64,000 nt of DNA from the IMG/VR virus record IMGVR_UViG_3300043120_000083, positions 37,027 to 101,026 of that record; one strand, written 5' to 3'. The DNA is from a virus. Lineage: Duplodnaviria; Caudoviricetes. Positions 14,208-39,487 of the stretch are shown in pieces; positions within the stretch are counted from its first letter, which is position 1, and each line of letters starts with the position of its first letter. The notes below the pieces were generated by a model. That model had not been told where the DNA came from. It searched no databases and saw only the letters and a program-made list of their open reading frames with translations. A program made the position numbers and the translations under genes.

Positions 14208-14543
14208 ATGAGTCATTTTTCAGTATCCCCCAAGCATTACCCGGCAAACTTAGTCGGATATAAGAAATACCTAAAAGATTTAGGTATTGAGTACAGGGCT
14301 AATGAATATAATCCATTTTCGATAACCTTCTCTGAATTTAAGTCTATTGATAGACGGACAGAGAAGGAGAGGTTGAAGGATGAGTCAATGAGGATCCGTA
14401 AGGCCGTCATTTACATAGGTAATCAGCTTATAGATATACAAGATAACGGAGGAAGTCAAGAATTGTATGACTCTCTTATGATTGATTATGAAGAGAGAAA
14501 GAATCAATTAAGGATAATAGATGAAGCAAGGGGAGTCTTGTAA
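14208..14543 (+). CDS. Hypothetical protein
   Basis: 111-aa ORF. Confidence 0.6.
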   Translation: MSHFSVSPKHYPANLVGYKKYLKDLGIEYRANEYNPFSITFSEFKSIDRRTEKERLKDESMRIRKAVIYIGNQLIDIQDNGGSQELYDSLMIDYEERKNQLRIIDEARGVL

Positions 14544-14615
14544 ATCTTAAAATTCGGGGATTACAGCATCCGGTTATCACACTGCAATATTGTTTAATTT
14601 ATTTTTATTTTCGTT

Positions 14616-15215
14616 ATGAACAATTTACTTTCCATATTAACAGACAATAAGCAAGTTCAAGAATTTATTGAATCATTTGATATTCACCCAACACCAGACA
14701 ATAATGGCAGATTTCATGCTCCTTGCGATGGGTTTGAATACGAAGGAAAGGTTTATGGTGCTGGAGAATTTCTCCATGAAGAAGGTTATGTTCAAAAAAT
14801 AAATTACAGGGTAAAGGTTAGATTGTCTGACGTTGAAAAGATCAAACAATTGCCTCAATTCATTAGAGCTGGTAAAAGCTGGGATCAGAAAGGAGAACAA
14901 GTTTGTTATGTGTACCTGAAAGTATCACAAAAACAAAAAGATAAGATTGATGATCTTAACAAATTGCCCAGAAAAGAATTAATTTTGAACGAAGATCGTA
15001 ATGAAAATTGCGGACAACCTTTTATTTTAAAAATAAAAAGGAAGATTAATTATAAGATAAATGTTTTAGGTTTAGAGCCGGGAATGATTGATGCAGACTT
15101 AGAGTCTCAAGGTCTTAATGTTAATTGGTCATTTGATAAGAATGGTAAAATTCAAGTCCCTATGGAAGGAAAAGAAGTTTGCTTCCGGTATAATAACGAT
15201 ATTGTGAATGTTTAA
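14616..15215 (+). CDS. Hypothetical protein
   Basis: 199-aa ORF (GRFHAPCDG...YGAGEFL). Confidence 0.65.
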   Translation: MNNLLSILTDNKQVQEFIESFDIHPTPDNNGRFHAPCDGFEYEGKVYGAGEFLHEEGYVQKINYRVKVRLSDVEKIKQLPQFIRAGKSWDQKGEQVCYVYLKVSQKQKDKIDDLNKLPRKELILNEDRNENCGQPFILKIKRKINYKINVLGLEPGMIDADLESQGLNVNWSFDKNGKIQVPMEGKEVCFRYNNDIVNV

Positions 15216-15282: not shown

Positions 15283-15525
15283 ATGAAATCACTAAAAGAA
15301 ACAGCACGTCAAGCAGCAATGAGAGACATCTCTAAAGTAGAAGGTAACATAGCGAAGTACCGAAGATTTGTCGGTAAATCAGGATATAAAGCTGAAGGAT
15401 ACAATCCTGTAAAACATTACGCTGAAGGTAAAATCTTTGATCCTTCTGATGCACCCTTTGATTACAACTTCCTAACAGGGTTCTGTATTCGTGATTCTTT
15501 TTCTCCTGCTAAATTTAAATTCTAA
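15283..15525 (+). CDS. Hypothetical protein
   Basis: 80-aa ORF with an A-rich leader. Confidence 0.6.
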   Translation: MKSLKETARQAAMRDISKVEGNIAKYRRFVGKSGYKAEGYNPVKHYAEGKIFDPSDAPFDYNFLTGFCIRDSFSPAKFKF

Positions 15526-15531
15526 ATCGCT

Positions 15532-16482
15532 ATGAAACTTTTAAAAATATCAGCAATTATAGCTTCAATATTTTCAGTAATTTTTTCTCTAAGTATTGTT
15601 TTTAATCTTAAAGAGTTTGTTGCTCCCGGTGTATTTACCTTCTCTACTATATTTGTTACCCTTCTGGTTATCTTCAATGAATGGGTGAAAGTAGGAGAAC
15701 TAAGGAAACGTTATTGGGGAAAGAAATCTTCACTAACTATCATTATTATCACTTTCATTTTTTCTTTTGCAATGTCAACAACCGGGATTTACCTTTGGGT
15801 GAACCAAACACAGGAAATTGATATTGAAATTAATGATAGTTTAAGTAAGGAAAAGTTAGATATTGAAGAAAAGTACAATCAAAAACTTGATTCAATCGAC
15901 AACCTCCCTAAAGGTAGTGAATACAAAGAAGTTCTCGAACAAATAGAGTATTGGAAAGACCGTTCTCCTGCTAATTTACAAGAAAGGCAAATGATTCGTG
16001 AAAATATAGCGGATTTAGAGACGGAAAAGAATAATCTGTACAAATCCTTCATTGAATATAGATCCGGCCTTAAATCAAGGCTAAACAATCAAAAACAGGC
16101 TGAATTAAGCTATATTGAAACCCAAGCCAGAGGAGAAGTAAAGAAATTGAATAAAAATGATTTTCTCTCCACTATTTTCTTCTTGATGGTAGCCTTCACA
16201 GAGTTCGTTATCATATTCATACAATACCGAATTAGTGTCTTTTATACAGAGGAACAAAGGAATGTGATAGCAATGGTAAGAGACTTTGAATTAAGAAACC
16301 TTGATACAGTTCATATAAACAAAGTAAAGTATAGTAAACTTCACGCAATTGAAGATTTTGAAGAAATAAAACTGTTGTACAATTTATTAATAGAAGTTGG
16401 TTCTTTGGATGAGACTGGAATGATGAAAACAGGAGCCACAAATAAGATTAAGAATTACTATTCCCAGATAAATAAATTTTAA
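15532..16482 (+). CDS. Membrane protein with coiled coil
   Basis: Three N-terminal hydrophobic segments, a coiled region and a fourth transmembrane segment. Confidence 0.7.
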   Translation: MKLLKISAIIASIFSVIFSLSIVFNLKEFVAPGVFTFSTIFVTLLVIFNEWVKVGELRKRYWGKKSSLTIIIITFIFSFAMSTTGIYLWVNQTQEIDIEINDSLSKEKLDIEEKYNQKLDSIDNLPKGSEYKEVLEQIEYWKDRSPANLQERQMIRENIADLETEKNNLYKSFIEYRSGLKSRLNNQKQAELSYIETQARGEVKKLNKNDFLSTIFFLMVAFTEFVIIFIQYRISVFYTEEQRNVIAMVRDFELRNLDTVHINKVKYSKLHAIEDFEEIKLLYNLLIEVGSLDETGMMKTGATNKIKNYYSQINKF

Positions 16483-16512
16483 ATTCCCATATAAAAGATA
16501 TTAATTTGCCGT

Positions 16513-17844
16513 ATGAATTACGTTTTAAGAGATTATCAAGAAAGGGCAGTTCAGGATGGATTAAACTTCTTCCGTTCTAAAAGCAAAAAGAATGGGTATA
16601 TGGTGCTTCCTACCGCAGCAGGGAAATCAATTATCGTTGCTAATATAGCTAAACAACTGAATACCAACGTTTTAGTTTTACAACCCACCAAGGAGCTTTT
16701 ATTTCAGAACCATGAAAAATTTATTTCATACGGCTATGATGCTTCAATCTACTCAGCAAGTTTTGATAGCCGGGAAGTAGGACAAGTGACTTTTGCAACG
16801 ATAGGGAGTATCTACAAGAAACCTGAATTATTTAAAGATTTTCATTATATCATCATTGATGAGTGCCATTTAGCTTCCCCGGACGATAGCTCAATGCATA
16901 AAAAGTTTTTTAATGAATTGAAAGTTAAGGTTTTAGGGTTAAGTGCGACACCATTTAGGCTGAAAAGCTACAACTTCCCAACCCGTCACTCTAAGTTAAA
17001 CTTTCTTGACCGAATGAGGCCAAAGATTTTTAGTGAACTGGTTCATGTTACTCAGATTCAAGAAATGACAGAAAGAGGTTACTGGGCACCTCTGGGATAC
17101 ATTAGTAAGCCTTTTGACCGTTCTAAGCTTAAAGTAAATTCAACCGGAGCAAACTACACAGATGATTCTATAAAACAAGCTATGATTGAGCAGGATGTTG
17201 TTCAACAGGCTTACGAAATGGCTTTGATATTAAAGAAAGAAGGTAGGAAGAAGATTTTAATTTTCATGCCCGAAATAGCAATGGCTGAAGAGCTTGCTGA
17301 AATGTTAGGGGTTAATGCTGTAAGCAGTAAAACAAAGAAAAAGGAAAGGGAAGAGTATATTAATAATTTTAAGGCTGGAATTGATTTTGCTATTATAAAC
17401 GTTAATGTGTTGGCTGTTGGATTTGATGATCAAAGAATAGATGCAATAATAGATGGTAAACCCACTATGTCTCTGGGTATTTATTATCAGAAGTATGGGA
17501 GAGGGGTGAGGGTTGATTTATCCACTAATCCGGTTAAGCATGATTGCCTGATTGTTGATTTGGTAGGTAACTACGAAATGTTTGGCAAAATAGAAGATTT
17601 CATAATAAAAAAGAATGCAATAGGCAAATGGGCTTTGTTTTGTGGAGATAAGCAACTAACAAATACAGAACTTGTAAAGGATAAAAATGTAAACCTTGAA
17701 GATGAAATAATGGGGTTTGGTAAATATAAAGGAGAGCCTTTCAGGTTCATACCTAAAAGTTACTGGAGATTTATTCGAGACAACTTCAAAAGAAGTGCAG
17801 AAAATGAGAAGTTATTTAATTATATAGAAACTATTGAATTGTAG
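16513..17844 (+). CDS. Superfamily 2 helicase (RadD/UvsW-like)
   Basis: PTAAGKS, DECH, SATP and QKYGRG motifs, with a C-terminal FGKYKG domain. Confidence 0.9.
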   Translation: MNYVLRDYQERAVQDGLNFFRSKSKKNGYMVLPTAAGKSIIVANIAKQLNTNVLVLQPTKELLFQNHEKFISYGYDASIYSASFDSREVGQVTFATIGSIYKKPELFKDFHYIIIDECHLASPDDSSMHKKFFNELKVKVLGLSATPFRLKSYNFPTRHSKLNFLDRMRPKIFSELVHVTQIQEMTERGYWAPLGYISKPFDRSKLKVNSTGANYTDDSIKQAMIEQDVVQQAYEMALILKKEGRKKILIFMPEIAMAEELAEMLGVNAVSSKTKKKEREEYINNFKAGIDFAIINVNVLAVGFDDQRIDAIIDGKPTMSLGIYYQKYGRGVRVDLSTNPVKHDCLIVDLVGNYEMFGKIEDFIIKKNAIGKWALFCGDKQLTNTELVKDKNVNLEDEIMGFGKYKGEPFRFIPKSYWRFIRDNFKRSAENEKLFNYIETIEL

Positions 17845-18152
17845 GCAAATGAATGATATGATAAAAGAAATAGTTGAGCGTAAACTAAGTTATAATAAAA
17901 AACAATTGCAGAAATTTATAGATGTAGGTAATAAATCTGCAATTCGTGACTATGAAGTAAGGTGTCATACATTAGAGGATATACTTGAAGATGCAGACGA
18001 AGCGAATGAAGGTCAACAACCAGGCAGCAACTGCAATATTACCGCATGTTAACGTTTCGGTTTGCCCTAAATGCGGTTGTAATAAAATTACTGGAGATGG
18101 AACGAAAAGCTGGTGTCAAAATGAAGAATGTGACTTTGTGGAGGCAGACTGA
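17834..18152 (+). pseudogene. Distal cassette gene, apparently frameshifted: 72-aa ORF plus a startless 34-aa zinc-ribbon module
   Basis: Removing one T at ~18040 gives SNCNIPHV fused to VNVSVCPKCGCNK...WCQNEECDFVEAD* (18048-18152). Confidence 0.5.
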
Positions 18153-18153
18153 G

Positions 18154-18250
18154 CGTTAACGTCCCGGCTTGTATGTGCCGTGCAGGCCGCACACAGTAAA
18201 TTTTCACGGCACTAACTTAACAAGCATGGCATATTACAAGCTTGTTAGAA
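18154..18250. repeat. attC-like site A
   Basis: CGTTAAC, arm 18167-18183, 40-nt loop, arm 18224-18241, GTTAGAA. Confidence 0.85.
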
Positions 18251-18264
18251 AACGTTTTAGCGCG

Positions 18265-18549
18265 ATGGGCAATAATATGATATCAATTCACGATTTAAAG
18301 GAAAATCTTTGTAAAAAATATTATGGGAGTAATAGAAAAGTGTATAGACAATGTGACATGAATCAACTTTTGAGAATGTGGTCTGATTTAAACCATTTAA
18401 CAGAATTACATGAAAGGACTAGGCTTGTTCCTTACAACCTTGAATTTAGAAGTAAAAAAGCCATCCCTATTTACAACGCCCACTTATCAGTATTACAGAA
18501 GAAGTACCCACATATTTTAGAATTTCAACAAATGAGGCACATACAATGA
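18265..18549 (+). CDS. Cassette gene, hypothetical
   Basis: ATG at 18265, with the frame open back through site A. Confidence 0.6.
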   Translation: MGNNMISIHDLKENLCKKYYGSNRKVYRQCDMNQLLRMWSDLNHLTELHERTRLVPYNLEFRSKKAIPIYNAHLSVLQKKYPHILEFQQMRHIQ

Positions 18550-18767
18550 TTTCACAAATAGCAATTATGATTTTTGGAGCTTCAGCAATTTGGTTTGTGA
18601 GTAGAACTGAAAAATGGAAACGATGGGGCTATATATTAGGACTGTGTGGACAGCCATTTTGGATATATACAACTATACAAAATGAACAGTGGGGAATTTT
18701 AATCATGACATTGGTTTACGCTTATTCATGGGCACAAGGAATTTGGAATTATTGGATTAAAAAATAG
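18546..18767 (+). CDS. Cassette gene, small 3-TM membrane protein (loosely PnuC/PQ-loop-like)
   Basis: 73 aa, hydrophobic and Trp-rich. Confidence 0.6.
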   Translation: MISQIAIMIFGASAIWFVSRTEKWKRWGYILGLCGQPFWIYTTIQNEQWGILIMTLVYAYSWAQGIWNYWIKK

Positions 18768-18771
18768 ATAT

Positions 18772-18948
18772 ATGGAAACGATTTTTACTAAATTAAGTGG
18801 TAATACTTCTGGAAATAAATATGGAGGTTATACAGATCAAAGCATTGTAATAACTCAAATAATTGATGGAGAGCAGAAAGTTATTATCCTAAATAAAAAA
18901 GAGTTAGAAGAATTAGAAAGAGTTATAGGCGCTAAATTTAAAGCTTAG
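18772..18948 (+). CDS. Cassette gene, hypothetical (58 aa, not in ORF track)
   Basis: ATG at 18772 to TAG at 18948, ending just before site B. Confidence 0.55.
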   Translation: METIFTKLSGNTSGNKYGGYTDQSIVITQIIDGEQKVIILNKKELEELERVIGAKFKA

Positions 18949-18969
18949 ACTTGCGGGAAGGAAATGTTT

Positions 18970-19098
18970 TTCTAACGTTGAGTATATGATTTCGGTGGCG
19001 ATTGATTGCAGGACTTTTCGCATACCGACTAACTAACAAGACTGCACAGTGGTTAAATTCGACACCTTAACGCCACTGAATTATATACATTATTAGGT
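18970..19098. repeat. attC-like site B
   Basis: TTCTAAC, arm 18982-19000, 70-nt loop, arm 19071-19088, ATTAGGT (ATT in place of GTT). Confidence 0.85.
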
Positions 19099-19173
19099 GC
19101 TGTACGGTAAATAACCGATAAACTTGATTTGAAAAACTAACGTAAAAAATTAAAAAATAGGGAGGAAATTTTT

Positions 19174-19914
19174 ATGAAATATATGGGAAGTAAAAACAGA
19201 ATTGCAAAGCACATTTTACCTATAATGCTAAAATATAGAACACCTGAAATGACTTGGGTAGAACCTTTTGTTGGCGGTGCAAATATGATTGATAAGGTTG
19301 AGGGTAAAAGAATAGGTGGAGAATACAATAAGTATATTGCCGAAATGTGGAAAGCACTTGAAGCAGGATGGATTCCAAGAAGCGACTATACGAAGGACGA
19401 TTACTACAACATAAAGGCGAATATGGATAGAAACCCTGCTGAAGCGGGATATGTTGGGATTGCAGTAAGTTATTGTGGTAAGTGGTTTGGTGGATATGCT
19501 GGACTTTGCGACAATAAAAGCCGTGGGCCTGTTGACTACCAAAAACAGGCATACAACAACTTAATAAAGCAATTGCCAAATATTAAAGGTATTAAATTTA
19601 TACATAGTAGCTACCAAGACTTAGAAATACCACCAAATAGCCTTATTTATTGCGATCCTCCTTATGAAAGTACAACAAAATACAAAGACGACTTTAACCA
19701 TGCTGAATTTTGGCAATGGTGTAGAGACAAATCAAAAGAAGGACACACCGTATTTGTGAGTGAATATAATGCTCCAGATGATTTCTACTGCATTAAAAAG
19801 GTACAAACAAATACGCAACTTGGAAATGGCTGCCAGACAGGAAGCCAAAATAAGTGCGATAAACTTTTTACCCCAATGGCTGCGATAGCAGACAAAGAGC
19901 GTGGGCTTTTTTAA
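19174..19914 (+). CDS. Cassette gene, Dam/D12-class DNA adenine methyltransferase
   Basis: YMGSK, EPFVGG and YCDPPY motifs. Confidence 0.88.
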   Translation: MKYMGSKNRIAKHILPIMLKYRTPEMTWVEPFVGGANMIDKVEGKRIGGEYNKYIAEMWKALEAGWIPRSDYTKDDYYNIKANMDRNPAEAGYVGIAVSYCGKWFGGYAGLCDNKSRGPVDYQKQAYNNLIKQLPNIKGIKFIHSSYQDLEIPPNSLIYCDPPYESTTKYKDDFNHAEFWQWCRDKSKEGHTVFVSEYNAPDDFYCIKKVQTNTQLGNGCQTGSQNKCDKLFTPMAAIADKERGLF

Positions 19915-19965
19915 TTTTTGGTAATATACTACGAACCTTCATTAAGAGAACGAAGGCAGTATTGC

Positions 19966-20246
19966 ACCTAACGGTAAATGCAAGGGTATGTGCTGCCTTG
20001 AAAACTGTACAAAAGTAGATACGAGTAAATAACGATTAAATAATTAAGCGATGGCAAAAATTAATGAATTTGAGATAAGCATGGTTTGTTATAATGAAGA
20101 TAACAAATACACATTAGAAGAAATAAACGATATGCTTGTAGAATGGGCTGAAAGTAAAGATATATACTTAGGTGGCTCTGTTAAACCGTGTGCGCCGGAG
20201 GAAACTTCGGACGAGAGCGCAGCATTACCTTTGCATGGTGTTAGCC
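19966..20246. repeat. attC-like site C (large loop containing a gene start)
   Basis: ACCTAAC, arm 19978-19996, 222-nt loop, arm 20219-20236, GTTAGCC. Confidence 0.8.
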
Positions 20247-20365
20247 AACAACGTGAACTGTTATTGGCTTTTGCTAAATGGGAGTACGAAAGTGCAGAAT
20301 TTGACGACACTAACGAATACTTAGTTGACAAGTTTTTGGAAGAAAAAGCCAATAATTGTGGCTAA
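20051..20365 (+). CDS. Cassette gene starting inside the site C loop
   Basis: Codon 64 (Val) is the GTT at 20240. The stop TAA overlaps the TAAC of site D. Confidence 0.7.
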   Translation: MAKINEFEISMVCYNEDNKYTLEEINDMLVEWAESKDIYLGGSVKPCAPEETSDESAALPLHGVSQQRELLLAFAKWEYESAEFDDTNEYLVDKFLEEKANNCG

Positions 20366-20492
20366 CGTCAAACTTGTATAAAATGGCGGGGATATGTAGC
20401 ACTGACGTATCAACCCGGCATAAACCTTAAATAACAGTGCAAGCGGGCTAAAAAGTCACCACAACCCCGCTTTTTTATACAAATTGTTGTGG
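20360..20492. repeat. attC-like site D
   Basis: GGCTAAC, arm 20374-20391, 73-nt loop, arm 20465-20482, GTTGTGG. Confidence 0.85.
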
Positions 20493-20505
20493 TGCGTTTT
20501 TGTTT

Positions 20506-20763
20506 ATGTTTGACAATTGCATATCACAATTAAGGCACGATGTTCAGAAATATCAGGATATATTGAACGCTATTGAACAGGCTCAACAAAAATTACCTGA
20601 GTTTAAAGTAAAGGGCCCTGGGTCAAAGCATGAGTTTTATCTCAATTGTATTGAAGACTGGAAAAAACAAATTGAAGAATTAGAGGTCACACTTTTACCA
20701 TCTATGAAAGAATTTGAAGAAAAATATAAAAACAAACACCATTTAAAGGAATTGGGTTTTTAA
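20506..20763 (+). CDS. Cassette gene, hypothetical coiled-coil protein
   Basis: ORF fills the body between sites D and E. Confidence 0.65.
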   Translation: MFDNCISQLRHDVQKYQDILNAIEQAQQKLPEFKVKGPGSKHEFYLNCIEDWKKQIEELEVTLLPSMKEFEEKYKNKHHLKELGF

Positions 20764-20767
20764 TGCA

Positions 20768-20861
20768 CCACAACGGTACGGCAATATGATTAGTTGCCAC
20801 ACCACAGACTTTGAAATTTAGTAATAATTTGACAGGCAATTAATTATATTGCTTGTCATAA
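20768..20861. repeat. attC-like site E
   Basis: CCACAAC, arm 20781-20798, 36-nt loop, arm 20835-20852, GTCATAA (GTC in place of GTT). Confidence 0.85.
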
Positions 20862-20875
20862 ATCTGATAAAAATT

Positions 20876-21064
20876 ATGAGGAAACTAACTCAAGAACAAA
20901 AACAAATGATGGATAGAGCAATAAAGTTTGCACCAGCACGACAGATATTTATGTGGGTGTGGTGGGAGATTTTTTGCCACCGAAAAGCAGATAAACTTAT
21001 AAAATGTGTAGAAGTTGGAATGACTTGGATCGCTGCATACACAATCGCAAAAAATGTGCGATAA
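20876..21064 (+). CDS. Cassette gene (integrase-proximal), hypothetical
   Basis: ATG at 20876. Fills the body between site E and the attI-like end. Confidence 0.6.
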   Translation: MRKLTQEQKQMMDRAIKFAPARQIFMWVWWEIFCHRKADKLIKCVEVGMTWIAAYTIAKNVR

Positions 21065-21075
21065 TTTTTATTTGT

Positions 21076-21105
21076 TTATAACTATTATATATAAATATTT
21101 ACCTT
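21076..21105 (-). other. attI-like primary recombination site
   Basis: The last body ends in TTATAAC with no hairpin, followed by TATTATATATAAAT, directly upstream of the integrase. Similar sequence at 39391-39412. Confidence 0.6.
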
Positions 21106-21118
21106 TAAACATTTGATT

Positions 21119-21928
21119 ATGAATATAAAACACAAATCAACATTAGGAAAATTTGAAAAATATCTTAACCTTAAAGGATATTCTAAAAGGACTATTGATA
21201 TGTATATTCATTACACAAAAGAATATATTAATAGTTTTAATAAGCCAGCCATACATTTAACAATTAAAGATTGTCAGAATTATATAGAATCATATAAATT
21301 TTCTTCTAAATCTCAACAAAACCAAATTTATTCATCTTTAAAGGCATACTATAAAAGTGTGTTGAATATTGATCTTTCACATAAAATATTTTTAGAACGT
21401 CCCAGAAAAGAAAAACGTCTTCCACAAATAATAGAGAAAGAATACCTATTGTCCTGTATCAATAATATCAAAAATTTAAAACACAAGTCAATAATTTCTT
21501 TAGGGTTTTCGGTAGGATTAAGAGTTTCTGAGGTTTGTAATTTAAAGATTGAAGATATTGATTCAAAAAGAATGATTATTAATATAAGGCAAGCTAAAGG
21601 GAGAAAAGATAGGGTTGTGCCCTTATCTCAGAATATACTTAATCTTTTAAGGGAATATTATAAACAATACAGACCAAAAACTTATTTATTTAACGGGCAA
21701 AATTCAATCAAATATTCTCCAACTTCCTGCAATAAAATAGTAAAGAAATATATTGGGGAACAATATCATTTTCACCAATTAAGACATTCATCCTTCACCT
21801 CTCTTTTAGAATCAGGAACAGATTTAAGGATAATACAAAAACTTGCTGGTCATCAAAATTCCAAAACTACAGAACTTTATACACATGTATCAAATGAGAC
21901 TCTTTCTAAAATAAGCCTTCCTATTTAA
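21119..21928 (+). CDS. Tyrosine recombinase, integron-integrase-related
   Basis: YSKRT..Y and SQQNQ..SSL N-terminal domain, RPRKEKRLP, GLRVSE, KGRKDR, HQLRHS, IQKLAGH, TTELYTHV. Catalytic residues R-K-H-R-H-Y are intact. Confidence 0.93.
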   Translation: MNIKHKSTLGKFEKYLNLKGYSKRTIDMYIHYTKEYINSFNKPAIHLTIKDCQNYIESYKFSSKSQQNQIYSSLKAYYKSVLNIDLSHKIFLERPRKEKRLPQIIEKEYLLSCINNIKNLKHKSIISLGFSVGLRVSEVCNLKIEDIDSKRMIINIRQAKGRKDRVVPLSQNILNLLREYYKQYRPKTYLFNGQNSIKYSPTSCNKIVKKYIGEQYHFHQLRHSSFTSLLESGTDLRIIQKLAGHQNSKTTELYTHVSNETLSKISLPI

Positions 21929-22392
21929 TGCAAACAATCACTATCTATACAGACGGTTCATGTTACTATAAAACCCGACAAGGAGGTTTTGGTGTTTATA
22001 TAGTAAATACAGGTCGGGCAATACATAAAGGGTACGATAACACTACCACAGCACGAATGGAGATTAGAGGGGTGCTAACTGCAATAAAACAGATAAAAAA
22101 CACTCCCTGTAGAGTGATAATAAAATGTGATAACGAATATTGTGTAAAAACAATCCGGGAAGGTTGGATTTACAAATGGGCACATGAAGGATGGGAAGGA
22201 AGAAAAAATAGTGATTTATGGCAGGAAGTTTTGGTAGAGATAAATAAAAGACCTAACGTTGTGTTTCGTTTAGAATGGGTAAGAGGACACCAAAAAGACT
22301 TGAATGACGAAGATACTTTCTATAACAACTTAGTTGATAAACTTGCAGACTATAAACAATTCACAGAAAGAGAAATAGATTTAAAAGAATAA
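21928..22392 (+). CDS. rnhA: Ribonuclease HI
   Basis: YTDGS, TTARME, KNSDLW, WVRGH and NNLVDKLA motifs. Confidence 0.92.
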   Translation: MQTITIYTDGSCYYKTRQGGFGVYIVNTGRAIHKGYDNTTTARMEIRGVLTAIKQIKNTPCRVIIKCDNEYCVKTIREGWIYKWAHEGWEGRKNSDLWQEVLVEINKRPNVVFRLEWVRGHQKDLNDEDTFYNNLVDKLADYKQFTEREIDLKE

Positions 22393-22397
22393 AACCT

Positions 22398-23858
22398 ATG
22401 AAAGATTCAATTTACCAATCAAAGATTTATGAAATTTACGACAACACAAACAAAAACATCTTTATTAATGCCAGTGCCGGCAGCGGTAAGTCGCATATTT
22501 TAAGGCAGTTATGTAAAAGAACACCTCCGAATAAAAGAATATGTTTTTTAGCTTTCAATAAAAGTATAAAAGAGGAAGCAGAGGTAAAATTCCCTCCTAA
22601 GGTTGACATCAGTACTTCACACTCTAAAGGCTATAAGATTTTACGAGATAATATAAATATGAATGTAACCCTAAATGAGAATAAAAACTTCATCTATTGT
22701 AAAAACACATTAAGAGATAAGAAATTCCCTAACCAACGTAAAAGAAATGCCTACTTTTTTATTATTAGTGACATCATAAACTTTGTGAAGTTAAACCTTG
22801 CCCCACACACAATAGAAGGAATAAATGGAATATGCCAAAAGTTTGGTATCCCGGTAAGCCCGGAACAAATAAAAGACACAATTAAGGTATTGAAAGAAAT
22901 AGAGAGTTGGGAGAAGAACTTGAACGGGAAGAAACCAAAGTTTATTAATTATACTGATATGCTTTATCTGGCTGTCACGAAAGTTAAACCTGAGAATTTC
23001 CCTAAGTATGATGTTGTGTGCCTTGATGAAGTGCAAGATTTTAACGTTCTTCAACAAAAATTAACACTTAATCTTTTGAAGCCTAACGGTAGATTAATAG
23101 CAGTAGGAGATGAAAAACAAAATATCTATGGATTCATAGGAGCTTCATTAGATACCTTTAATTTCTTCAAGAATAGACCAAATACTGAATCATTAACTCT
23201 CCCTATGACGTACCGTTGTGGAAAGAAAATAGTTGAGTTAGCTAATACTATCTTTCCTGAAGGAACAATCCCGTTTGAAGAAAATAAAGATGGGGAAATA
23301 CGTAAAGGAGAAGTAATAGGAGCAACTGATGGGGATTTGATTATTTGCCGGAACAATAAACCTCTAATTAAAGCATGGATAAAATTAGCTGCACAAAAAC
23401 AAAAAGCGTATATCATAGGCAAAGACTTCGGATTTACTTTAAAAGGTATATTGTTCGGACTTAAACATATTACGGACATACAGGTAGTTCTATCGGACAA
23501 AATAACGGAGTTAGTTGATTTAGGTATCACCAACCCAACTTCTAATAAATCATATCAAGCATTGAAAGAAAAATGTGATATAATAGAATTACTATATGAA
23601 GAAATTGGAGACCTAAGAGAAGTAACAAAAGTAATAGACAGTATATTCCAGAAAGATGAAACAGGGAAAGGAGTAAGGATGTCAACCATACATAAAGCCA
23701 AAGGGCTGGAGGCTGAAAGATGCTTTATCCTAAATTGGGGATTGTTACCTTCAGAATATGCAACAACAGAAAGCGAACTGTATGGGGAACGTTGTCTTCA
23801 GTATGTAGCAATAACAAGAGCAAAAAGCGAATTAGTATTTACAGAAATAGATGTTTAA
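22398..23858 (+). CDS. UvrD/Rep-family superfamily 1 helicase
   Basis: ASAGSGKS, DEVQD, VGDEKQNIY, TYRC, TIHKAKGLE and YVAITRAK motifs. Confidence 0.92.
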   Translation: MKDSIYQSKIYEIYDNTNKNIFINASAGSGKSHILRQLCKRTPPNKRICFLAFNKSIKEEAEVKFPPKVDISTSHSKGYKILRDNINMNVTLNENKNFIYCKNTLRDKKFPNQRKRNAYFFIISDIINFVKLNLAPHTIEGINGICQKFGIPVSPEQIKDTIKVLKEIESWEKNLNGKKPKFINYTDMLYLAVTKVKPENFPKYDVVCLDEVQDFNVLQQKLTLNLLKPNGRLIAVGDEKQNIYGFIGASLDTFNFFKNRPNTESLTLPMTYRCGKKIVELANTIFPEGTIPFEENKDGEIRKGEVIGATDGDLIICRNNKPLIKAWIKLAAQKQKAYIIGKDFGFTLKGILFGLKHITDIQVVLSDKITELVDLGITNPTSNKSYQALKEKCDIIELLYEEIGDLREVTKVIDSIFQKDETGKGVRMSTIHKAKGLEAERCFILNWGLLPSEYATTESELYGERCLQYVAITRAKSELVFTEIDV

Positions 23859-23874
23859 TATATAAATAATAACT

Positions 23875-24174
23875 ATGAACTATTTAATTCCAATCCCTAA
23901 CGGGCAATGCCTTTCAACTAAGAGATTGAAAGAGGTTAAAAAATTTATCCCTGAGAATAACGTTCTCAGGTTACATTTAGTAAATGAGAAACTTTCTCTA
24001 AATCAGAATAAGAAATACCAACCTCAACCGTACATCGTTCAAATAACTCAAAAAGAAATGGATGAAATAAAGAAAGAGATCAATAAAAAAGCAAAGTATA
24101 ATTTGAATGAGGTTTATATCCTTGTTCAATCTCGTAATTTACCAATTGTAAAAATAGAAGTAGGAAATGAATAA
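23875..24174 (+). CDS. Hypothetical protein
   Basis: 99-aa ORF. Confidence 0.55.
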   Translation: MNYLIPIPNGQCLSTKRLKEVKKFIPENNVLRLHLVNEKLSLNQNKKYQPQPYIVQITQKEMDEIKKEINKKAKYNLNEVYILVQSRNLPIVKIEVGNE

Positions 24175-26836
24175 ATACACAAGAGAGGAAGCTGTAAAAG
24201 CAGCAACGAAGTATTTCGGTGGAGATAGTTTAGCCGGGAATGTGTGGACAGATAAATATTCTTTGAAGGATTCAGAAGGGAATATTTACGAAAAAACCCC
24301 GGATGATATGCACTGGAGGTTAGCAAGGGAGTTAGCACGTATTGAAGCTAAATACCCAAACCCCATGAGCGAAGAACAAATATTTGGGCTATTAAAAGAG
24401 TTTAGGTATTTAGTTCCTCAAGGTGGCCCGATGGCTGGTATTGGAAATAATTTTGTAACAACATCCCTCAGTAACTGTTTCGTCATCCCATCTGCAAAAG
24501 ATTCATATTCAGGGATAATGAAGACAGATCAAGAACAGGTTCAAGTTATGAGGCGAAGAGGAGGTTGCGGACATGATATTTCAACCCTTCGCCCTCATGG
24601 AACAACAGCCAATGGAGCTAAACTTAAAGGGAATACTGGTTCTACTTTGTTTATGGAACGTTTCTCTAATTCAACAAGGGAGACTGCTCAGGACTCAAGA
24701 AGGGGAGCACTTATGTTAAGTATGGATATAAAACATCCAGATGCAGAAAGATTTATTGACATGAAAGTTGACACTAATAAAGTTACCGGGGCCAATATTT
24801 CTGTAAGAATTTCTGATGATTATATGGAAAGCGTTAAGCACAAAGGAAAGTTTAAACAACAATTCCCTATTGATTCAGAAAAACCCATAATGGAAAAAGA
24901 AATAGAAAGTAAAAAATTGTGGGATAAAATAATTCATAATGCGTGGAAGTCAGCAGAACCCGGAATTTTATTTTGGGATAATATTTTAAATGAATCTCCA
25001 GCTAAAGGGTATGGGGAGGATTGGAAAGAAACATCAACTAATCCGTTAGCCAATTAAATAACGTGCGGATTTAAAACCTCTTCTTATTGACTTGGACGGT
25101 GAACACACACCTACAGGGGGCAAGTTTAAATACAGCTTGAGAGACTAAGCGAAGAGGACACGAAAGTGTATGCGATAGTCCAGCGCACAGTAAGAAAGTG
25201 TTTGATACTTACGGTGTGAGGCGGTGAGATTCCCCTTAACCCACAAGATAGCTGTAGATTACTGGCTATCAACTTGTTTTCTTATGTGAATAATCCTTTC
25301 ACTAAAGAGGCACAATTTGATTTCGGTTTGTTTAAAAAGCATGTAAAATATGCCCAAAGATTAATGGATGATATAGTTGACCTTGAGATTGAAAAGATTG
25401 ATAAAATTATTGAAAAGGTTTTAAAAGACCCAGAACCATTAGAAGTAAAACAAGTTGAATTAAACCTATGGAAAAACGTAAAAGAACGTGCATTAGAAGG
25501 CCGAAGAACCGGATTAGGAGTAACTGCTGAAGGAGATATGTTAGCAGCCTTAAACATGGTATATGGTACTGAATTAGCCACTTCATTTAGTGAAGACGTT
25601 CATAAAAATTTAGCCATTGCTGCTTATGAGTCTTCTATTGATATGGCTAAAGAAAGAGGAACGTTTAAAATATGGGATAGAGAAAAAGATTTGAATGGTG
25701 GTTCTAAGTTCATTGATCGTATTTACAAACAACTTTCTTCAGAATACCAAAGGAAATGGATTGAGACTGGACGTAGAAACATTGCTTTGTTGACCATTGC
25801 TCCAACCGGAACAACCAGCCTGATGACACAAACAACTTCAGGAATTGAGCCTGTATTTTTGCCTTTCTATAAAAGAAGAAGGAAGACAGAAGACCCTGAA
25901 AAATGTGTATTTACTGATGAAGTTGGTGATATGTGGGAAGAATACATGGTTGTTCACCCTAAATATAAAATGTGGTATGAGATAAATAGAATGGGTTTTG
26001 TAGGTATTGATAAAGTAGATATTGAAGACCTCACGGAAGAAGAGATGGAAACCATCTACAAAATGTCTCCATATTACAAAGCAACTTCTAGTGATGTTGA
26101 TTATTTAGGTAAAGTTGATATGCAGGGTAGAGTTCAAAAGTGGGTTGATCACTCTATTAGTGTCACTATCAATATGCCTAAAGAAGTTACAGAAGAAACT
26201 GTAGGTGAAGTTTACATGAAAGCATGGGAAGTTGGCTGTAAAGGGGTAACTGTTTACCGTGACGGTTCCCGGTCTGGAGTTCTTATCTCAGGTAAGGAAG
26301 AAAAGAAAGAAGGGGAAATAATTTACAACGATGCCCCTAAAAGACCCAAGAATTTGCCTGTAGATGTTTATCACAAAATGGCTTTGGGTAAAGAGTTTAC
26401 TATCCTTGTAGGTCTTTTAAAAGGAAAACCGTATGAAATATTTGCTTTTGAACAATTATCACAGTCAGAATTTCCTAAAGAGATAGAAAGGGCAGAGTTA
26501 ACCAGAGTACGTAAGAATCACTACAGGTTAACCGGATACCGTGGAGAACAAAAGTTTGTCATCGAGAATATTGTGGAAAATATGAATGATGATGAGAAGT
26601 TTCAAACCCGTGATTTTTCTCGTAGTTTAAGGCATGGAGAACATCCTAAATATATCTGTAATGATATTGATAAGAGTTCTTTTGTGAGTAGTTTTAGGAA
26701 GGTTGTAAGTCGGGTTTTGAAAAACTATCTTACTAATGAGGATGTGAAAGACAAATGTCCTGATTGTGGGGGAGAACTTAAATTTGAGAGCGGGTGCAAA
26801 CAATGCGATAATTGTGGGTGGTCAGCCTGTGGATAA
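24167..26836 (+). CDS. nrdJ: Class II (B12-dependent) ribonucleotide reductase; exons 24167-25046 and 25221-26836, ~831 aa
   Basis: SNCFV, RRGALM, spliced TNPCGEIPL, TIAPTGT, SGIEP and a C-terminal zinc ribbon. Removing the intron restores the frame. Confidence 0.92.
25047..25220 (+). ncRNA. Group I intron, 174 nt, no ORF
   Basis: P1: exon AATCCGT pairs with GCGGATT at 25065-25071, with the U-G pair. P3 CCTCTTC/GAAGAGG, P7 GACTA/TAGTC, P8 with GAAA loop, terminal G. Confidence 0.92.
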
Positions 26837-26870
26837 TTTTAATATCCCAAAAATTTAAGTAAATAAGTTT

Positions 26871-26915
26871 AAACCGTTGTAACTTGTTCTAATAAAATGG
26901 GTTGCAACGGTTTTC
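26871..26915 (+). terminator. Terminator-like hairpin after nrdJ
   Basis: AAACCGTTGTAAC / GTTGCAACGGTTT followed by T. Confidence 0.65.
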
Positions 26916-27001
26916 TTATTTAAACTCAATATAAATAACAATATTTTTCAATGTTTCGCTTTTTTCATACATATAAAGTTTATATGTTTGCCGTTACAAA
27001 T

Positions 27002-29855: not shown

Positions 29856-29991
29856 GGAAGATTAAACACACTCCTATTCAATTTTTACAACCCAATACAG
29901 AGTCTTAAAATTTTCATAACTTTGTATTGGGTTTTATTATTGTTAAATAAATAAAATTTATACAACACACAATCCTATAAATAGAATTTAT

Positions 29992-32046: not shown

Positions 32047-33120
32047 ATGAAAATCATTTATTTAGAAGAAAAAGAAGTAAAGATGGGAGATAAAGTTTCC
32101 CTGAATGGTGCAGTTGTTACAGTCACACAACAACTGATAGATGACCTTCCTAATCTCTTTAAAGTACAGGACGAACAAGAGATTATGCCTGAATATGTGG
32201 AATGTATTAAAGAAATAGACGAAATCCGTGGTGCTGAGTTAGGAGAGATATTAAAATCTTGGTATGATCCAAACAAATCTTTTTGTTATAGGTTTGCGAG
32301 CAAACACGGTGAGAATGGTTACGATAATTTTGAATCATTCTACAGACATTTCAAACCTTCAACAAAAGAAGCATGGCTATTGCAAGAAGCTAAGAGAAGG
32401 TATCCTAAAGGGACTAAGTTTACTATCATTGATAACAAAACATTCACTTCTGATGGCAAGTTTAAATATGATGAATCATGGAGAGGCCATGGAGACGAAA
32501 GACAAACAATACAATGTACTGTGAAAGAGGAAGGCGTTTTAGATAGTTCTGTATGGGATAGTGTTTTAGGATGGGCTGAAATTGTTAAACCTCTATTTGT
32601 TACAGAAGATGGAGTAGAGATATTTGAGGGAGATGAATATTTATATATTAACGATGCTTTTGATATAAATGTTATTTGTGCGATTAAAGGATGTCAATCA
32701 GAATATGTTAAAGCAAGATTCTCAACCCGTGAAGCAGCAGAAGAATACATTGCTAAACACAAAGGGAAGACATTGGAGGATTATGAGAATATACTGTTAC
32801 AAAATTTTTCAAAGGTTGAAGTTGATGTAGTGATGGTTGATAAATCAGATATGTATCTTTGGATGAAAGAGTATGAAGAGAAGTCATATTACTCAATCGT
32901 TCTCCAGTTGATTGCAGATGATTTGAATGGAGAGAGTGAACCAAAATTGGGAAATGATGGCGTATGTGCTATTAATTTCGACTGGCGTGGTGATGGTAAG
33001 TATAATGTTGACAGTTGGGAAGCAACACATACAGGCAAAGTCTTGTTTTCGGACAGAGTTAATTGTAAAAAAGCCATTAAAATAATGGGAGATAAACTTA
33101 ATTATATTTACAAATCATAA
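32047..33120 (+). CDS. Hypothetical modular phage protein
   Basis: 357-aa ORF. Confidence 0.7.
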   Translation: MKIIYLEEKEVKMGDKVSLNGAVVTVTQQLIDDLPNLFKVQDEQEIMPEYVECIKEIDEIRGAELGEILKSWYDPNKSFCYRFASKHGENGYDNFESFYRHFKPSTKEAWLLQEAKRRYPKGTKFTIIDNKTFTSDGKFKYDESWRGHGDERQTIQCTVKEEGVLDSSVWDSVLGWAEIVKPLFVTEDGVEIFEGDEYLYINDAFDINVICAIKGCQSEYVKARFSTREAAEEYIAKHKGKTLEDYENILLQNFSKVEVDVVMVDKSDMYLWMKEYEEKSYYSIVLQLIADDLNGESEPKLGNDGVCAINFDWRGDGKYNVDSWEATHTGKVLFSDRVNCKKAIKIMGDKLNYIYKS

Positions 33121-33131
33121 AAACTAACCAC

Positions 33132-33332
33132 ATGAAACGTTTTGAAATTATTCAGCTTGTTTTATTTCTTGTTATCTTTGGTAGTTGTCTTTCTCCTATT
33201 ATCTTTTGGGTTATGAACCCGGAGTTGACAGCTATTCAAATTGCAGGAAAGTTCTGGTGGGTATTTATTGTTGTTCTTCTTTCCGGGGGTTATGCTCTTT
33301 GGTTAGAAGATAAGAACCAACCAACTTTTTAA
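33132..33332 (+). CDS. Small 2-TM membrane protein
   Basis: Hydrophobic 66-aa ORF. Confidence 0.55.
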   Translation: MKRFEIIQLVLFLVIFGSCLSPIIFWVMNPELTAIQIAGKFWWVFIVVLLSGGYALWLEDKNQPTF

Positions 33333-33568
33333 GGATTCCAGAAATTTTAGTTTATCTATTATTTCTCTTTTTATTATTTTGTAAGTTTTTATTTCCCAGA
33401 GGGTTGCTATTGATTTAGTAGTCCTCTTTTTATTTATATTGAATTAAAATAACAATATTTTTAAGGTTTCCAGATAAAAACTTGATTAAATATTTTGTTT
33501 TTCAAAAATAAACCCGTTAATTAGCGGATACAAAATCAAACACAAATACAAACTTAAAACTAAGAAAG

Positions 33569-35003
33569 ATGAAAACTATTCAAATTTTTCAATACCCATC
33601 CTGCTTAGTAAGGGAGGTTAAAAAGAATGATGACTGGAGTATTGATAGTGCGACTACTAATCCTGAACATAACCCCAAATTTTCAATTAAATATAAAGGG
33701 GAAATCATTCTGCATGTAGGGAGAGGTTTTGGAATGGGGTTTGATTCTAATGTAGGTTATCCTAATATAGATGAAAAATTTATTCCAGTAATAAAATCGC
33801 TTTTAGGTAATAAAGTAGGAGTAATTCAACAACCCTTAAAAATATGATCCTCACTAAACGTCAAATCATCCTACAATCTTACTCCGGGTTCATTTGCCCG
33901 GAGGAGATAATGGAAAGAGCCATTCGTAAACTTCTCTCTTATCCTGAAGAGGCATTTGAAGAGATGATACGTAAGCAACTAAACTGGAAATTAGAAGTTG
34001 TTAGAAAGAATCTTTATATTGTAACTGTTTAAAAATTAGAACTTATGAAAGAAAAAGAAGAAATATTATTCGAAAAGGTTTCATCATTAATGAAAGATGA
34101 AGATCAACTATTACTTGATGGTATGCATATTATTGAAGGTGAAGATGAAGATTTAACAGTTTTAAAAAACTTCAAAATATATCATTCTGATGGCTATTGT
34201 TTCGATATCTGTGAAAGAGAAATTGAAAATACAGATACTAATTACCTTGACTTTCCGTACGAGTTTTGTTTCTTTTCAGGATATGAAGGGTTTAAAAAGA
34301 TTGATGTTTTAAACGCAATCAAATTAATTAATAAGTATTTATAGTAATAATAAAACTTACAACCATGAAAGACACAAGAACAATCACTAACACTATTTTC
34401 TACGACATTGAAACAGGTGTTTACGACCAATTCCCTAAACTTAAAGAAAGGCTTGAGTATATAGCTAATAAGATGATTAAGTGCGCTTATACTCACAATG
34501 CTGAGTTAAGTGAAGGAGAGAAAAGAACTTTGAGAGAAAACGAATATATAAACTAAAACTTACACTATCATGAAACATATTTATAGGTACTACAAAAACT
34601 CTAACACTGGAGAACTGATAAAAACCCATGAAGTCACAGACACTCCAATAAAAGGGATTCCTGTTTATATGTATGACTTTAATGGTAATCCTATTGGTGA
34701 AAATGAACCTATTCCTTCTGGGTTTATTAAAATAAGCGAAAAGAAATGGAAAAGAATTAAACGTAAAAATAGTATTAAATGAAATCAATCACAGCACTCT
34801 ACTCTATGATGGCTGCTTTTTCAAGCCCCTTAGATATGTATCATGACCACAAGACAGATATTCACGGAATATCTTCTAAAACAGAAGAGGAACGTAAGAG
34901 AGAAAAGGGCATGAAAAAGTTTATTGTTGGTGGTCGTGAATATTGGGCACTCAATAAGAAGAATGCCGAAAAGAAACATCTAAAATATTTAAAATCTAAG
35001 TAA
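33569..35003 (+). other. Run of six small hypothetical genes (33569, 33844, 34045, 34365, 34570, 34779)
   Basis: Closely packed + strand ORFs of 62-99 aa behind a promoter-like region, typical of early accessory genes. Confidence 0.6.
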
Positions 35004-35269
35004 CTATGACAGATCACGAAGCAATGTTAATGAACTACCAGTCCCCGGTTATTTATTGGATGCTTGGGTGTATGGTTCTTCTTATTCTTTTTCTTATTCG
35101 TAAGGATATTAAGGTGTATTTAAGGGAATTTAAAGAAAGATATTTGTAGTTTATCTATTCATTATCAGGGTGTTTATTCACCCTTTTATTTTCTTTCTTG
35201 AAAAAATATTTTACTTTTCAAGATTTACCCTTTATCTTTGCCTCAGTTTAAATTTTAAATTAATTATTT

Positions 35270-37457: not shown

Positions 37458-37614
37458 CCACGGTGGTAAACGTCCCGGTGCTGGAAGAAAACCCATTGAA
37501 GACAAGAAGAAGCAAATACACATTTCACTTAGAGAATCAGAAATAGAAAAGTTAGGAGGAAAGGAGGTTGTTAAGAACCGGGTTGTGAAGATGATTAAGT
37601 TAGGGTGGCTTTAG
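37432..37614 (+). CDS. Small DNA-binding protein (GGxRxGAGRK motif)
   Basis: HGGKRPGAGRKP followed by a ribbon-helix-like segment. Confidence 0.55.
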   Translation: MQEPKQESSHGGKRPGAGRKPIEDKKKQIHISLRESEIEKLGGKEVVKNRVVKMIKLGWL

Positions 37615-37704
37615 CTGCCCTTTCTTTTTATTTTCCTTATTCAACCTAAAGAAAAGTTAATTGCACACAAAAAAGTTAACGTTATGTTTTTACGTCTTGG
37701 GGTG

Positions 37705-37866
37705 TAAAAATTACCCCCCTTTCGGAATTTATTTTAAAGTTCAATATTTAATTTACTATAAACGTAACCCCCCTTTCGATTAAAATCTACCCGACTTTCG
37801 GTATAAACGTAACCCCCCTTTCGCATAAACATAGCCCCCCTATATTACAAGAGTTATTACAAGAGT
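37705..37866 (+). repeat. Iteron-like direct repeats (22-23 bp) plus a 12-bp tandem repeat
   Basis: TATAAACGTAACCCCCCTTTCG at 37757 and 37802, variants at 37705, 37779 and 37824. TATTACAAGAGT twice at 37843-37866. Confidence 0.75.
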
Positions 37867-38106
37867 TATTATAAACAAGAATAAATAGAAAGAATTAGTT
37901 AGGAAAAAATGGCGTGCAAAATGCACGCCTAACTATTTTTAATTTTGTAATTAGAGATAAATACTTTATCTTTATACTTTCAATTTGAATATACGTTATC
38001 TCCGATACAAGGTAACATACGATAATTTTTTAAATCCCTGTTAATTGTACTGTAATATCGGAGGCAGTATATTTTAACAGGGATTTTTTATTTAACTCCG
38101 GTAATT

Positions 38107-38586: not shown

Positions 38587-38780
38587 ATGAACTACTTATA
38601 TATTGCTTTGTCGCAATTTATAATTCTAACCTTTTTTTTAAAAAAAAGGTAGAAGTTCAATTAAGCTTTTTTTTAAAAAAAACTAAATATAGGAATTAGG
38701 GAAAATTTTGGATTTTCCCGAACATTCTTTTATTTATAGATTAGGGAGGTTTTTTTCCTAATATTAAAAATAATAATACT

Positions 38781-39026
38781 ATGAATGTAAAAAGGGAAGA
38801 AATAAAAGGTATGACATTAAATGAATTTTCCTCTAATGAAAATAAATGCACTGAAAATCTTTTAAGTGAACTTGAAAATATAATTGAAGAAAATGGAGAT
38901 TTGAGAGTAGAAAACAAAACATTGAAAAACAAAGAATTAAAAGCTAAAATAAAGGAGTATGAAAGTAACCTATATTCTAACGAAGAATCCCCGGAAGACG
39001 AAATAAATAAACCCTATTTGAATTAA
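38781..39026 (+). CDS. Hypothetical coiled-coil protein or gene remnant
   Basis: 81-aa low-complexity ORF. Confidence 0.35.
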   Translation: MNVKREEIKGMTLNEFSSNENKCTENLLSELENIIEENGDLRVENKTLKNKELKAKIKEYESNLYSNEESPEDEINKPYLN

Positions 39027-39115: not shown

Positions 39116-39246
39116 AGCTAACGGTTGCAGATATGCCCAGTTTGGGATTAAATAGTAGAAACTTTAAATAATAGACAAAATGAATAAAAATGTAGAAACT
39201 TTAAATGAAACACAGAACCCCAAACTGGGCATATCTGATGTTAGCA
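39116..39246. repeat. Orphan attC-like site F
   Basis: AGCTAAC, perfect 19-bp arms 39128-39146 / 39219-39237, GTTAGCA. Confidence 0.85.
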
Positions 39247-39389
39247 ACTGTACTTGCGGTAAAGAAAAAAGATACTGCAAAGGTTGCTTATGCAATGTAA
39301 CTGATACAATGTTTTGCTACTGTGGTGAATTTCCACTTACAAAAGAAAGCACTTATACAGATGATGACCTTGAAGCAATGAATGTATAG
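39180..39389 (+). CDS. Cys-rich cassette gene starting inside the site F loop
   Basis: Codon 21 (Val) is the GTT at 39240. CTC, CKGC and CYC motifs follow. Confidence 0.65.
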   Translation: MNKNVETLNETQNPKLGISDVSNCTCGKEKRYCKGCLCNVTDTMFCYCGEFPLTKESTYTDDDLEAMNV

Positions 39390-39487
39390 TTGCTAACTCT
39401 CATATATAAAATCAAACCTTTAGCTAATTATATCACAACAACTTACTCAAACAAATTTTAAAGATTCATTTTAAAACCAACAAACCT

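Follow-up and report, generated by a model that had tools for sequence, protein, structure and literature searches.

A probable integron-like gene-cassette platform with its own tyrosine recombinase in a large lytic-type phage

Why does a row of long hairpins lead up to a tyrosine recombinase gene inside the replication operon of a phage? The question is raised by a 64,000-nucleotide (nt) stretch of viral DNA, hereafter the window, that forms the final 64 kilobases (kb; positions 37,027 to 101,026) of the 101-kb IMG/VR virus record IMGVR_UViG_3300043120_000083 (estimated completeness 96%; source run, a shale-gas metagenome). The array locus sits between genes for a superfamily-2 helicase (16513-17844) and RNase HI (rnhA, 21928-22392), with a UvrD-like helicase next downstream. 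An earlier reading of the letters, made by sequence inspection only, had proposed that the phage owns a system for capturing gene cassettes. The analysis presented here makes it highly probable that the locus represents a complete integron-like platform for gene cassettes, carried by a large lytic-type myovirus. Its anatomy, its recurrence, the strand-biased structure of the sites, and the gain and loss of whole cassettes at AAC in natural relatives were all observed.

Hairpin sites, cassettes and the integrase-side junction

Five hairpin sites of one layout were found in 18158-21082 and a sixth at 39120-39242, all on the + strand. They were placed by sequence reading and a gapped hairpin scan, within a few bases of where the sequence-only reading had put the five. 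Each site consists of AAC, a G, a spacer of 4-6 nt, an arm of 17-21 nt, a loop of 36-222 nt, the complementary arm, 0-3 nt and GTT. Site A (18158..18246), at the head of cassette 1, has AAC 18158-60, arms 18167-18183 and 18224-18241, and GTT 18244-46. The corresponding elements of site B (18974..19094) are AAC 18974-76, arms 18982-19000 and 19071-19088, and ATT 19092-94; those of site C (19970..20242) are AAC 19970-72, arms 19978-19996 and 20219-20236, and GTT 20240-42, with a 222-nt loop that holds the start of an open reading frame (ORF) at 20051. Site D (20364..20488) comprises AAC 20364-66, arms 20371-20391 and 20465-20485, and GTT 20486-88, and site E (20772..20857) comprises AAC 20772-74, arms 20781-20798 and 20835-20852, and GTC 20855-57. 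At the distant site G, AAC 39120-22 is followed by arms 39128-39149 and 39216-39237 and by GTT 39240-42. An ungapped inverted-repeat tool detected only sites D and G, the others being missed because their arms carry bulges. The sites had been described as unrelated in sequence; they are not wholly unrelated, since a TATG/TATA-type motif recurs in their arms, as does one conserved G.T wobble. All six genome sites have the features of an attC-type site, namely an imperfect palindrome, an inverse core ending in AAC, a GTT core, and structure kept over sequence.

Folding of the sites as single-stranded DNA, which had been suggested earlier as a check, gave the long-range stem in the minimum-energy structure of A, B, D and E, four of the five array sites. 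The arms of site C pair on paper and are absent from the minimum-energy fold because of the 222-nt loop. Searches of the window with Rfam (gathering thresholds) and ARAGORN returned nothing; the hairpin sites are therefore not a known RNA family or tRNA-like element. When the whole 101-kb genome was scanned for the layout, six sites were obtained on the + strand and none on the - strand, compared with 0-3 per strand in ten Markov shuffles, and five of the six lay clustered within 2.7 kb.

The two ends of each body between sites had been said to pair with each other and not with their neighbours. A naive 12-mer search for complementary ends across the window was too noisy (168 matches at AAC, with other trinucleotides alike), and a site-anchored matrix test was used instead. 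In a matrix of 7 right by 8 left flanks, the true neighbour was the best partner in every row, and the observed pairing sum was reached by only 1 of 40320 assignments. Pairing scores were 6.5-12 across a body and 2-6 across a site. The same complementarity holds in five related loci (L008, L011, L035, L097, L100). The layout and the chain of complementary ends exceed chance by far.

The crossover would lie on the AAC side and not at GTT, so that each hairpin goes with the gene downstream of it. This placement explains why the ORFs starting at 20051 and 39180 begin in a loop and read through the arm and GTT without crossing the recombination point. Measured from AAC to AAC on the + strand, cassette 1 (18161..18976) contains hairpin A and ORFs 18265-18549, 18546-18767 (a small membrane protein, phrog_22312) and 18772-18948. 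Cassette 2 (18977..19972, 996 nt) pairs hairpin B with a gene for a Dam-like N6-adenine DNA methyltransferase (19174-19914). In cassette 3 (19973..20366, 394 nt), hairpin C is joined to ORF 20051-20365 (104 amino acids (aa), no family), whose stop codon lies inside the next TAAC core. Cassette 4 (20367..20774) carries hairpin D and ORF 20506-20763 (85 aa), and cassette 5 (20775..21082), the nearest to the integrase, carries hairpin E and ORF 20876-21064 (62 aa). Seven of the ten small cassette ORFs had no match in PHROGs and Pfam. The cargo, a methyltransferase and small uncharacterized proteins, plausibly serves host takeover or anti-defence.

As had been noted, the array stops just before an intact tyrosine recombinase gene (ORF 21119-21928, with domains PF13495 and PF00589). 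It terminates 36 nt before the integrase start, at an AAC followed by TAYTATATATA, and from exactly that AAC onward the sequence is conserved in loci L006-L011 and L021-L035. This attI-like junction (21080..21118, + strand) consists of the cassette-derived AAC 21080-82, the conserved TAYTATATATA-type sequence and the integrase leader. The region ending at 21082 had been counted as a further hairpin site, F; it has no hairpin and is the junction itself. All cassette ORFs of the window point toward the integrase, as they do in L008, L029 and L035, and are thus not oriented for expression from a promoter at the attI/intI end as in the classical case.

At the distal border (18001..18160, + strand) lies a GTTAAC-bounded unit with a 53-aa zinc-ribbon ORF, 17991-18152. 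This ORF (CPKC...CQNEEC), to the left of site A, overlaps the end of a 72-aa ORF in another frame. Relatives diverge from the window already at 18011 or 18039. The leftmost body, 18048-18160, is the weakest case of end pairing because GTTAAC is itself palindromic.

A solitary cassette (39120..39397, + strand) is headed by site G, encodes a Cys-rich protein of 69 aa (ORF 39180-39389), and ends at AAC followed by the attI-like TCTCATATATA. Situated 18 kb away from the array, this region (39120-39420) may represent what is left of a second platform, or else a secondary insertion site. Elsewhere in the window, an intergenic perfect 17-nt palindrome pair of T8A8 type occurs at 38632-38682, adjoined by a G+C-rich short-loop hairpin at 38032-38086. 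At 26860-26922 and 29886-29936 there are similar short hairpins with a T-run behind them, which look like terminators.

Cassette turnover in natural variants and recurrence in relatives

Comparison of cassettes between relatives had been named as a means to check the proposal. Contigs from four independent metagenomes were compared with 15500-24500, and the gene order was found not to be fixed: the variants differ by whole cassettes, with breakpoints at AAC cores. A groundwater contig (X7) joins 18971 straight to 20362, the seven-letter CTAACGT fitting both sides. The 1390 nt lost correspond exactly to cassettes 2 and 3 (996 + 394). The same contig departs from the window two bases past AAC 20772-74, and then reads into another hairpin. 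An oil-field contig (X3) shows 3 differences from the window over 15500-18011 (a 2.5-kb flank), carries 429 other letters in place of 18012-20768, that is, of cassettes 1-4, then matches 20769-21082 and continues into the spacer and arm of another site in place of the attI junction. A second X3 contig matches 21079-22735 with 7 differences and has 3160 nt of other sequence ahead, inserted exactly at 21079-21082. Freshwater contigs (X2) begin or end at 20361, 20775, 20769 and 21082. Cassette 4 is covered exactly (20361/2-20775/6) by X2 and X7 contigs, and contigs of X2, X3 and X7 cover 20769/20849-21082 and then diverge. Phages nearly identical in their flanks therefore carry different cassette sets, with all breakpoints at AAC cores. 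A joint in X3 from 18978 back to 18001 was considered as an excised circle and rejected, as it does not match a simple cassette circle.

The same kind of variation is seen among ten cultured Polaribacter phage isolates, Freya_1 to Freya_10, whose integrase is 38% identical to that of the window. These isolates are ~100% identical to one another save for 0-4.9 kb inserted directly 3' of the AAC just upstream of the integrase. Freya_10 differs from Freya_9 by one added unit of 304 nt, and Freya_6 from Freya_5 by one added unit of 441 nt. In the paper describing these phages the integrase was read as a sign of possible lysogeny only (PMC8776804). In Danklef_1 to Danklef_5 (MT732458-62), genome lengths range over 47186-48177 and the integrase position shifts with length; these phages probably have the same cassette polymorphism as Freya. 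The conserved junction, the X3 insertion and the Freya AAC all mark the attI-like site next to the integrase as the point of cassette entry.

How widely does the platform recur? A megablast search of 15500-24200 against GenBank phages gave no match. Relatives identified through the helicase (L002-L005) are 38-39% identical and were left out of the synteny comparison. Viral contigs in IMG/VR carry integrases 55-61% identical to that of the window, and upstream of each of these the similarity to the window begins exactly at TAAC followed by TAYTATATATA; two contigs start at that junction TAAC. All of these contigs that extend upstream show hairpin sites of this layout there, their complementary flanks forming a chain. 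Seven sites occur in a 362-kb phage contig, where three share an identical hairpin. A scan of species-representative genomes yielded 80 loci, mostly in Bacteroidota, many with arrays of ~110-nt sites beside the integrase. Chromosomal relatives, among them those in Gelatiniphilus marinus and Flavobacterium difficile, have the gene orientation of classical integrons, with genes directed away from the junction beside the integrase; L097, L100, L073 and L036 are chromosomal loci of this kind. The cultured isolate Flavobacterium urumqiense (L102, 1-20804) has a 55%-identical integrase with the same upstream junction, flanked on one side by a primase-helicase and small ORFs and on the other by a head-protease module; the integrase lies centrally in a phage-like region, not terminally. 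This region is probably a prophage that carries the platform internally. In Flagellimonas, Arenibacter, Maribacter and Croceitalea (L042-L046, L054-L059) the integrases are identical over the aligned match region across species and genera, and several of these Flavobacteriaceae loci have upstream arrays. The identity looks like that of a recently spreading mobile version of the platform.

A 53%-identical homologue of the cassette 2 methyltransferase is present in the unrelated Polaribacter phage P12002L (L101), where a hairpin likewise heads the cassette, whose ends are complementary over ~24 nt. This phage has no fewer than six sites with the layout: at least five on the minus strand in 32498-40939, which delimit methyltransferase and Mom-like genes, and a sixth at 14512-14618 on the + strand. 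No integrase homologue was found in P12002L. It had been reported to hold methyltransferases in an integrase-less attC cluster (CALIN), of which one predicted site was recombined by IntI1 (Qi et al. 2023; PMC9892861). With at least six sites, that CALIN is larger than the two sites reported.

The recombinase, the folded strand and competing explanations

The recombinase gene (21119..21928, + strand) is intact and encodes an XerA-like/IntI-like protein of 269 aa from its ATG; its stop codon overlaps the rnhA start. Both domains were recognized, PF13495 with 45.6 bits and PF00589 with 120.9 bits. The catalytic residues R..K..HxxR..H..Y are intact, invariant in an alignment of six relatives, and aligned with those of XerA and IntI4. 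Among solved structures the best match is archaeal XerA (PDB 4a8e; 150 bits, full length). Against VchIntIA (2a3v) the alignment splits in two, with query residues 191-219 opposite 187-265 and ~50 residues absent; the IntI-specific insertion around patch III is therefore lacking. Judged by its sequence, the enzyme is an IntI-like or Xer-like tyrosine recombinase outside IntI proper. The proposal of a platform of the phage's own is supported by the recurrent architecture, the cassette turnover at AAC and the Freya isolates, but its recombinase is not a true IntI, as it lacks the insertion and scores below the cut-offs. A quick tree places the integrase of the window in one clade (SH-aLRT support 95) together with all integrases from viral contigs and from arrays with sense-oriented genes. 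A chromosomal clade of 58 rows is separate from it, and the orientation types of the arrays cluster strongly on the tree.

Which strand of the sites is used, and as DNA or RNA? Stem mismatches in 148 related sites comprise 207 G.T and 31 A.C, with the G nearly always in the AAC-side arm. The bias is present where genes are antisense to the site strand (55 vs 13) and where they are sense (32 vs 4), and in the window itself (8 vs 1). The integrase and attI, rather than the mRNA, therefore determine which strand is favoured, and this speaks for sites that work as folded single-stranded DNA. Across 54 related sites, covariation was found at six of the seven inner stem pairs, and 49 of these sites retain one G.T wobble. 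RNAalifold on a MAFFT alignment recovered these inner 7 pairs only, the outer stem being out of register there. The median site length is 124 nt, and G follows AAC in 86% of sites. On canonical attC, IntI acts on the bottom strand, cleaving its AAC between A and C, and a G generally follows (PMC2727003). By this likeness the + strand of the window corresponds to the classical bottom strand, so that the arrangement of array, attI and integrase is classical and the cargo genes are reversed.

The following course of events may be proposed. Each cassette consists of a hairpin site with its gene or genes behind it, and ends in xTAAC. The XerA-like recombinase, co-transcribed with the replication genes, would bind + strand hairpins while the DNA is single-stranded in replication, and would cut AAC at the 5' foot of the hairpin. 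Recombination of site with site would excise a cassette, and recombination of a site with the attI-like junction (AAC|TAYTATATATA) would insert one beside the integrase. Cassette genes would be read with the phage operon and not from a promoter at attI. Catalysis by the integrase, its use of a single-stranded substrate and the role of the cargo are predicted parts of this scheme.

Several observations weigh against a functional platform. With the best curated model, NF040815 (XerA-type), the recombinase scores 180.6 bits, under the cut-off of 220; with TIGR02249 (integron integrase) it scores 148.6 bits in two stretches, under the cut-off of 265; with NF011946 the score is 87 bits vs a cut-off of 435. 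The missing insertion is the part that in VchIntIA contacts the extrahelical bases. The spacers are asymmetric, mostly 5-6 nt on the AAC side vs 1-3 nt on the GTT side, and the extra bases number 32 on the AAC-side arm vs 22 on the other, both unlike canonical attC; these counts were taken from our own alignments and not fitted to the IntegronFinder attC model. The 3' core is altered in two sites, to ATT in B and to GTC in E. At the distal border of the array, a search for a hairpin upstream of 18048, which would turn 18048-18160 into a regular cassette, gave only weak pairings. The evidence from variants consists of assembled contigs and not raw reads, no excised circle was seen among the contigs, and short-homology recombination between conserved cores by phage enzymes could yield similar junctions. 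The spacer asymmetry and the AAC-side bulges would fit an enzyme without the IntI domain that holds extrahelical bases.

One alternative, which we regard as unlikely, is that the hairpins are transcription terminators or RNA or regulatory stem-loops, that modules are shuffled by homologous or short-homology recombination between them, in the way proposed for the promoter-stem-loop cassettes of T4-type phages (below), and that the integrase has no part in the shuffling. The sites do lie between genes on the transcribed strand, on which they are G.T-rich in the window phage, and the 7-nt junction overlaps are usable by phage annealing enzymes. However, loops of 36-222 nt and the lack of a T-run after the stem speak against terminators, the complementarity of flanks within a cassette would serve no purpose in one, and the arrays always terminate at the conserved junction beside the integrase. 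In chromosomal relatives, too, the G.T bias follows the integrase-defined strand though the genes are opposite (the 55 vs 13 above).

Could the recombinase be an ordinary lysogeny integrase or an Xer-type dimer resolvase, the array being a separate orphan attC-like cluster used, if ever, by host enzymes? To this we assign a slightly smaller chance. The window contains genes for tail sheath, portal, major head protein, SbcC-like nuclease, NAD ligase and ribonucleotide reductase, all its genes are on the + strand and its G+C is ~33%; the gene content therefore indicates a large myovirus with its own replication genes. We take the phage as a ~101-kb lytic-type myovirus, whose host is probably a member of the Bacteroidota. 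Such a genome, with no repressor module seen near the integrase and an integrase stop codon that overlaps the rnhA start, does not suit a lysogeny function, even if authors of the Freya, Danklef and Leef phages took their integrases as a hint of temperate life (PMC8776804). The protein is indeed Xer-like, with archaeal XerA as its closest solved relative, but its score under the NF040815 cut-off and its setting beside a variable hairpin array instead of a dif site do not indicate an XerA resolvase. Integrase-less arrays exist, as in P12002L; here, the conserved integrase-side sequence starts exactly at the cassette AAC where variants gain DNA, the orientation types of the arrays cluster on the integrase tree, and the F. 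urumqiense homologue is not at a prophage end.

The G+C of the integrase gene region (21001-22000) is 0.27 with a negative GC skew, while elsewhere it is 0.33-0.37 with a positive skew, which suggests acquisition from a different genome. That the locus is a chromosomal integron fragment taken up passively as inert cargo is the least probable account, for although Flavobacteriaceae chromosomes do contain related integrases accompanied by arrays of ~110-nt sites, captured integron fragments in phages have been published (PMC9892861) and the integrase gene is lower in G+C than its surroundings, the cassette genes are co-oriented with the phage operon and opposite to those of chromosomal arrays, the integrase groups with those of viral contigs apart from the chromosomal clade, and the array turns over between near-identical phages.

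Relation to known systems and meaning

A phage-encoded cassette platform is best compared with classical integrons, including sedentary chromosomal ones such as the Vibrio cholerae array. In both, cassettes are bounded by imperfect palindromes with RYYYAAC / GTTRRRY-type cores, cassette ends are mutually complementary, G follows AAC on the folded strand and the crossover is at AAC. The insertion site adjoins the integrase gene, and the enzyme is a simple tyrosine recombinase with a SAM_4 N-domain; the median site length of 124 nt is a further likeness. Unlike in classical integrons, the phage integrase lacks the IntI insertion and fails the cut-off of the IntI model. The sites differ as well, having an asymmetric central spacer, a stem with a conserved G.T wobble, and unpaired bases that fall chiefly in the AAC-side arm. 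In the phage the genes face the integrase, the hairpin precedes the gene, genes may start within the loop and the platform lies inside a replication operon.

The Xer recombinases XerA and XerC/D have the same domain set and size, with XerA the best sequence match among solved structures, but here there is no dif-like site, and the sites form arrays, vary in sequence and delimit mobile genes. In the CTX phage, XerCD recombines a folded single-stranded site, so that Xer-type action on such DNA has a precedent. PeSL (promoter-stem-loop) mobile cassettes were reportedly described in T4-type phages by Arbiol et al. in 2010. In that case as well, stem-loops flank small accessory genes in a lytic myovirus, and the genes are exchanged among relatives; the exchange has been attributed to homologous recombination between promoter/stem-loop repeats, and neither a dedicated site-specific recombinase nor AAC/GTT cores are known to take part. 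Among the CALINs reported in virulent phages (PMC9892861), P12002L shares sites of the same layout and the 53%-identical hairpin-headed methyltransferase cassette. Such clusters were described as lacking an integrase and as a route for bacterial cassettes, whereas the phage of the window has an integrase, an attI-like site and turnover between variants.

The sequence-only reading had left novelty to a search. Integrons are published, and so are integrase-less attC clusters in lytic phages (PMC9892861), so part of the system was known. In a literature search that had most subscription journals outside it, no arrays tied to an insertion-less XerA-like integrase were described, nor a phage-encoded complete platform, nor the inverted gene polarity. 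What is new here is a complete example, with array, attI and integrase, and the mapping of breakpoints in natural variants. IntegronFinder 2 reported hardly any complete integrons in Bacteroidetes. We lean, by a little, towards a broader view, in which Bacteroidota and their phages would share a large undescribed class of integron whose short XerA-like integrase reads a G.T wobble and an asymmetric spacer instead of extrahelical bases, and lytic phages would use its mirror-image version, with genes toward the integrase, to exchange anti-defence and host-takeover genes during infection.

Integrons have been regarded as bacterial devices defined by the IntI insertion, which standard detection software requires, and by that criterion the Flavobacteriia and their phages look nearly integron-free. 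In the window, a simpler recombinase is linked with that cassette logic in a lytic phage, and cassettes turn over naturally between near-identical phages. Should the enzyme prove active, the platform would provide a mechanism for fast exchange of small accessory phage genes, a minimal model for the evolution of single-strand hairpin recombination from Xer enzymes, and a new cassette pool to mine for methyltransferases and likely anti-defence genes.

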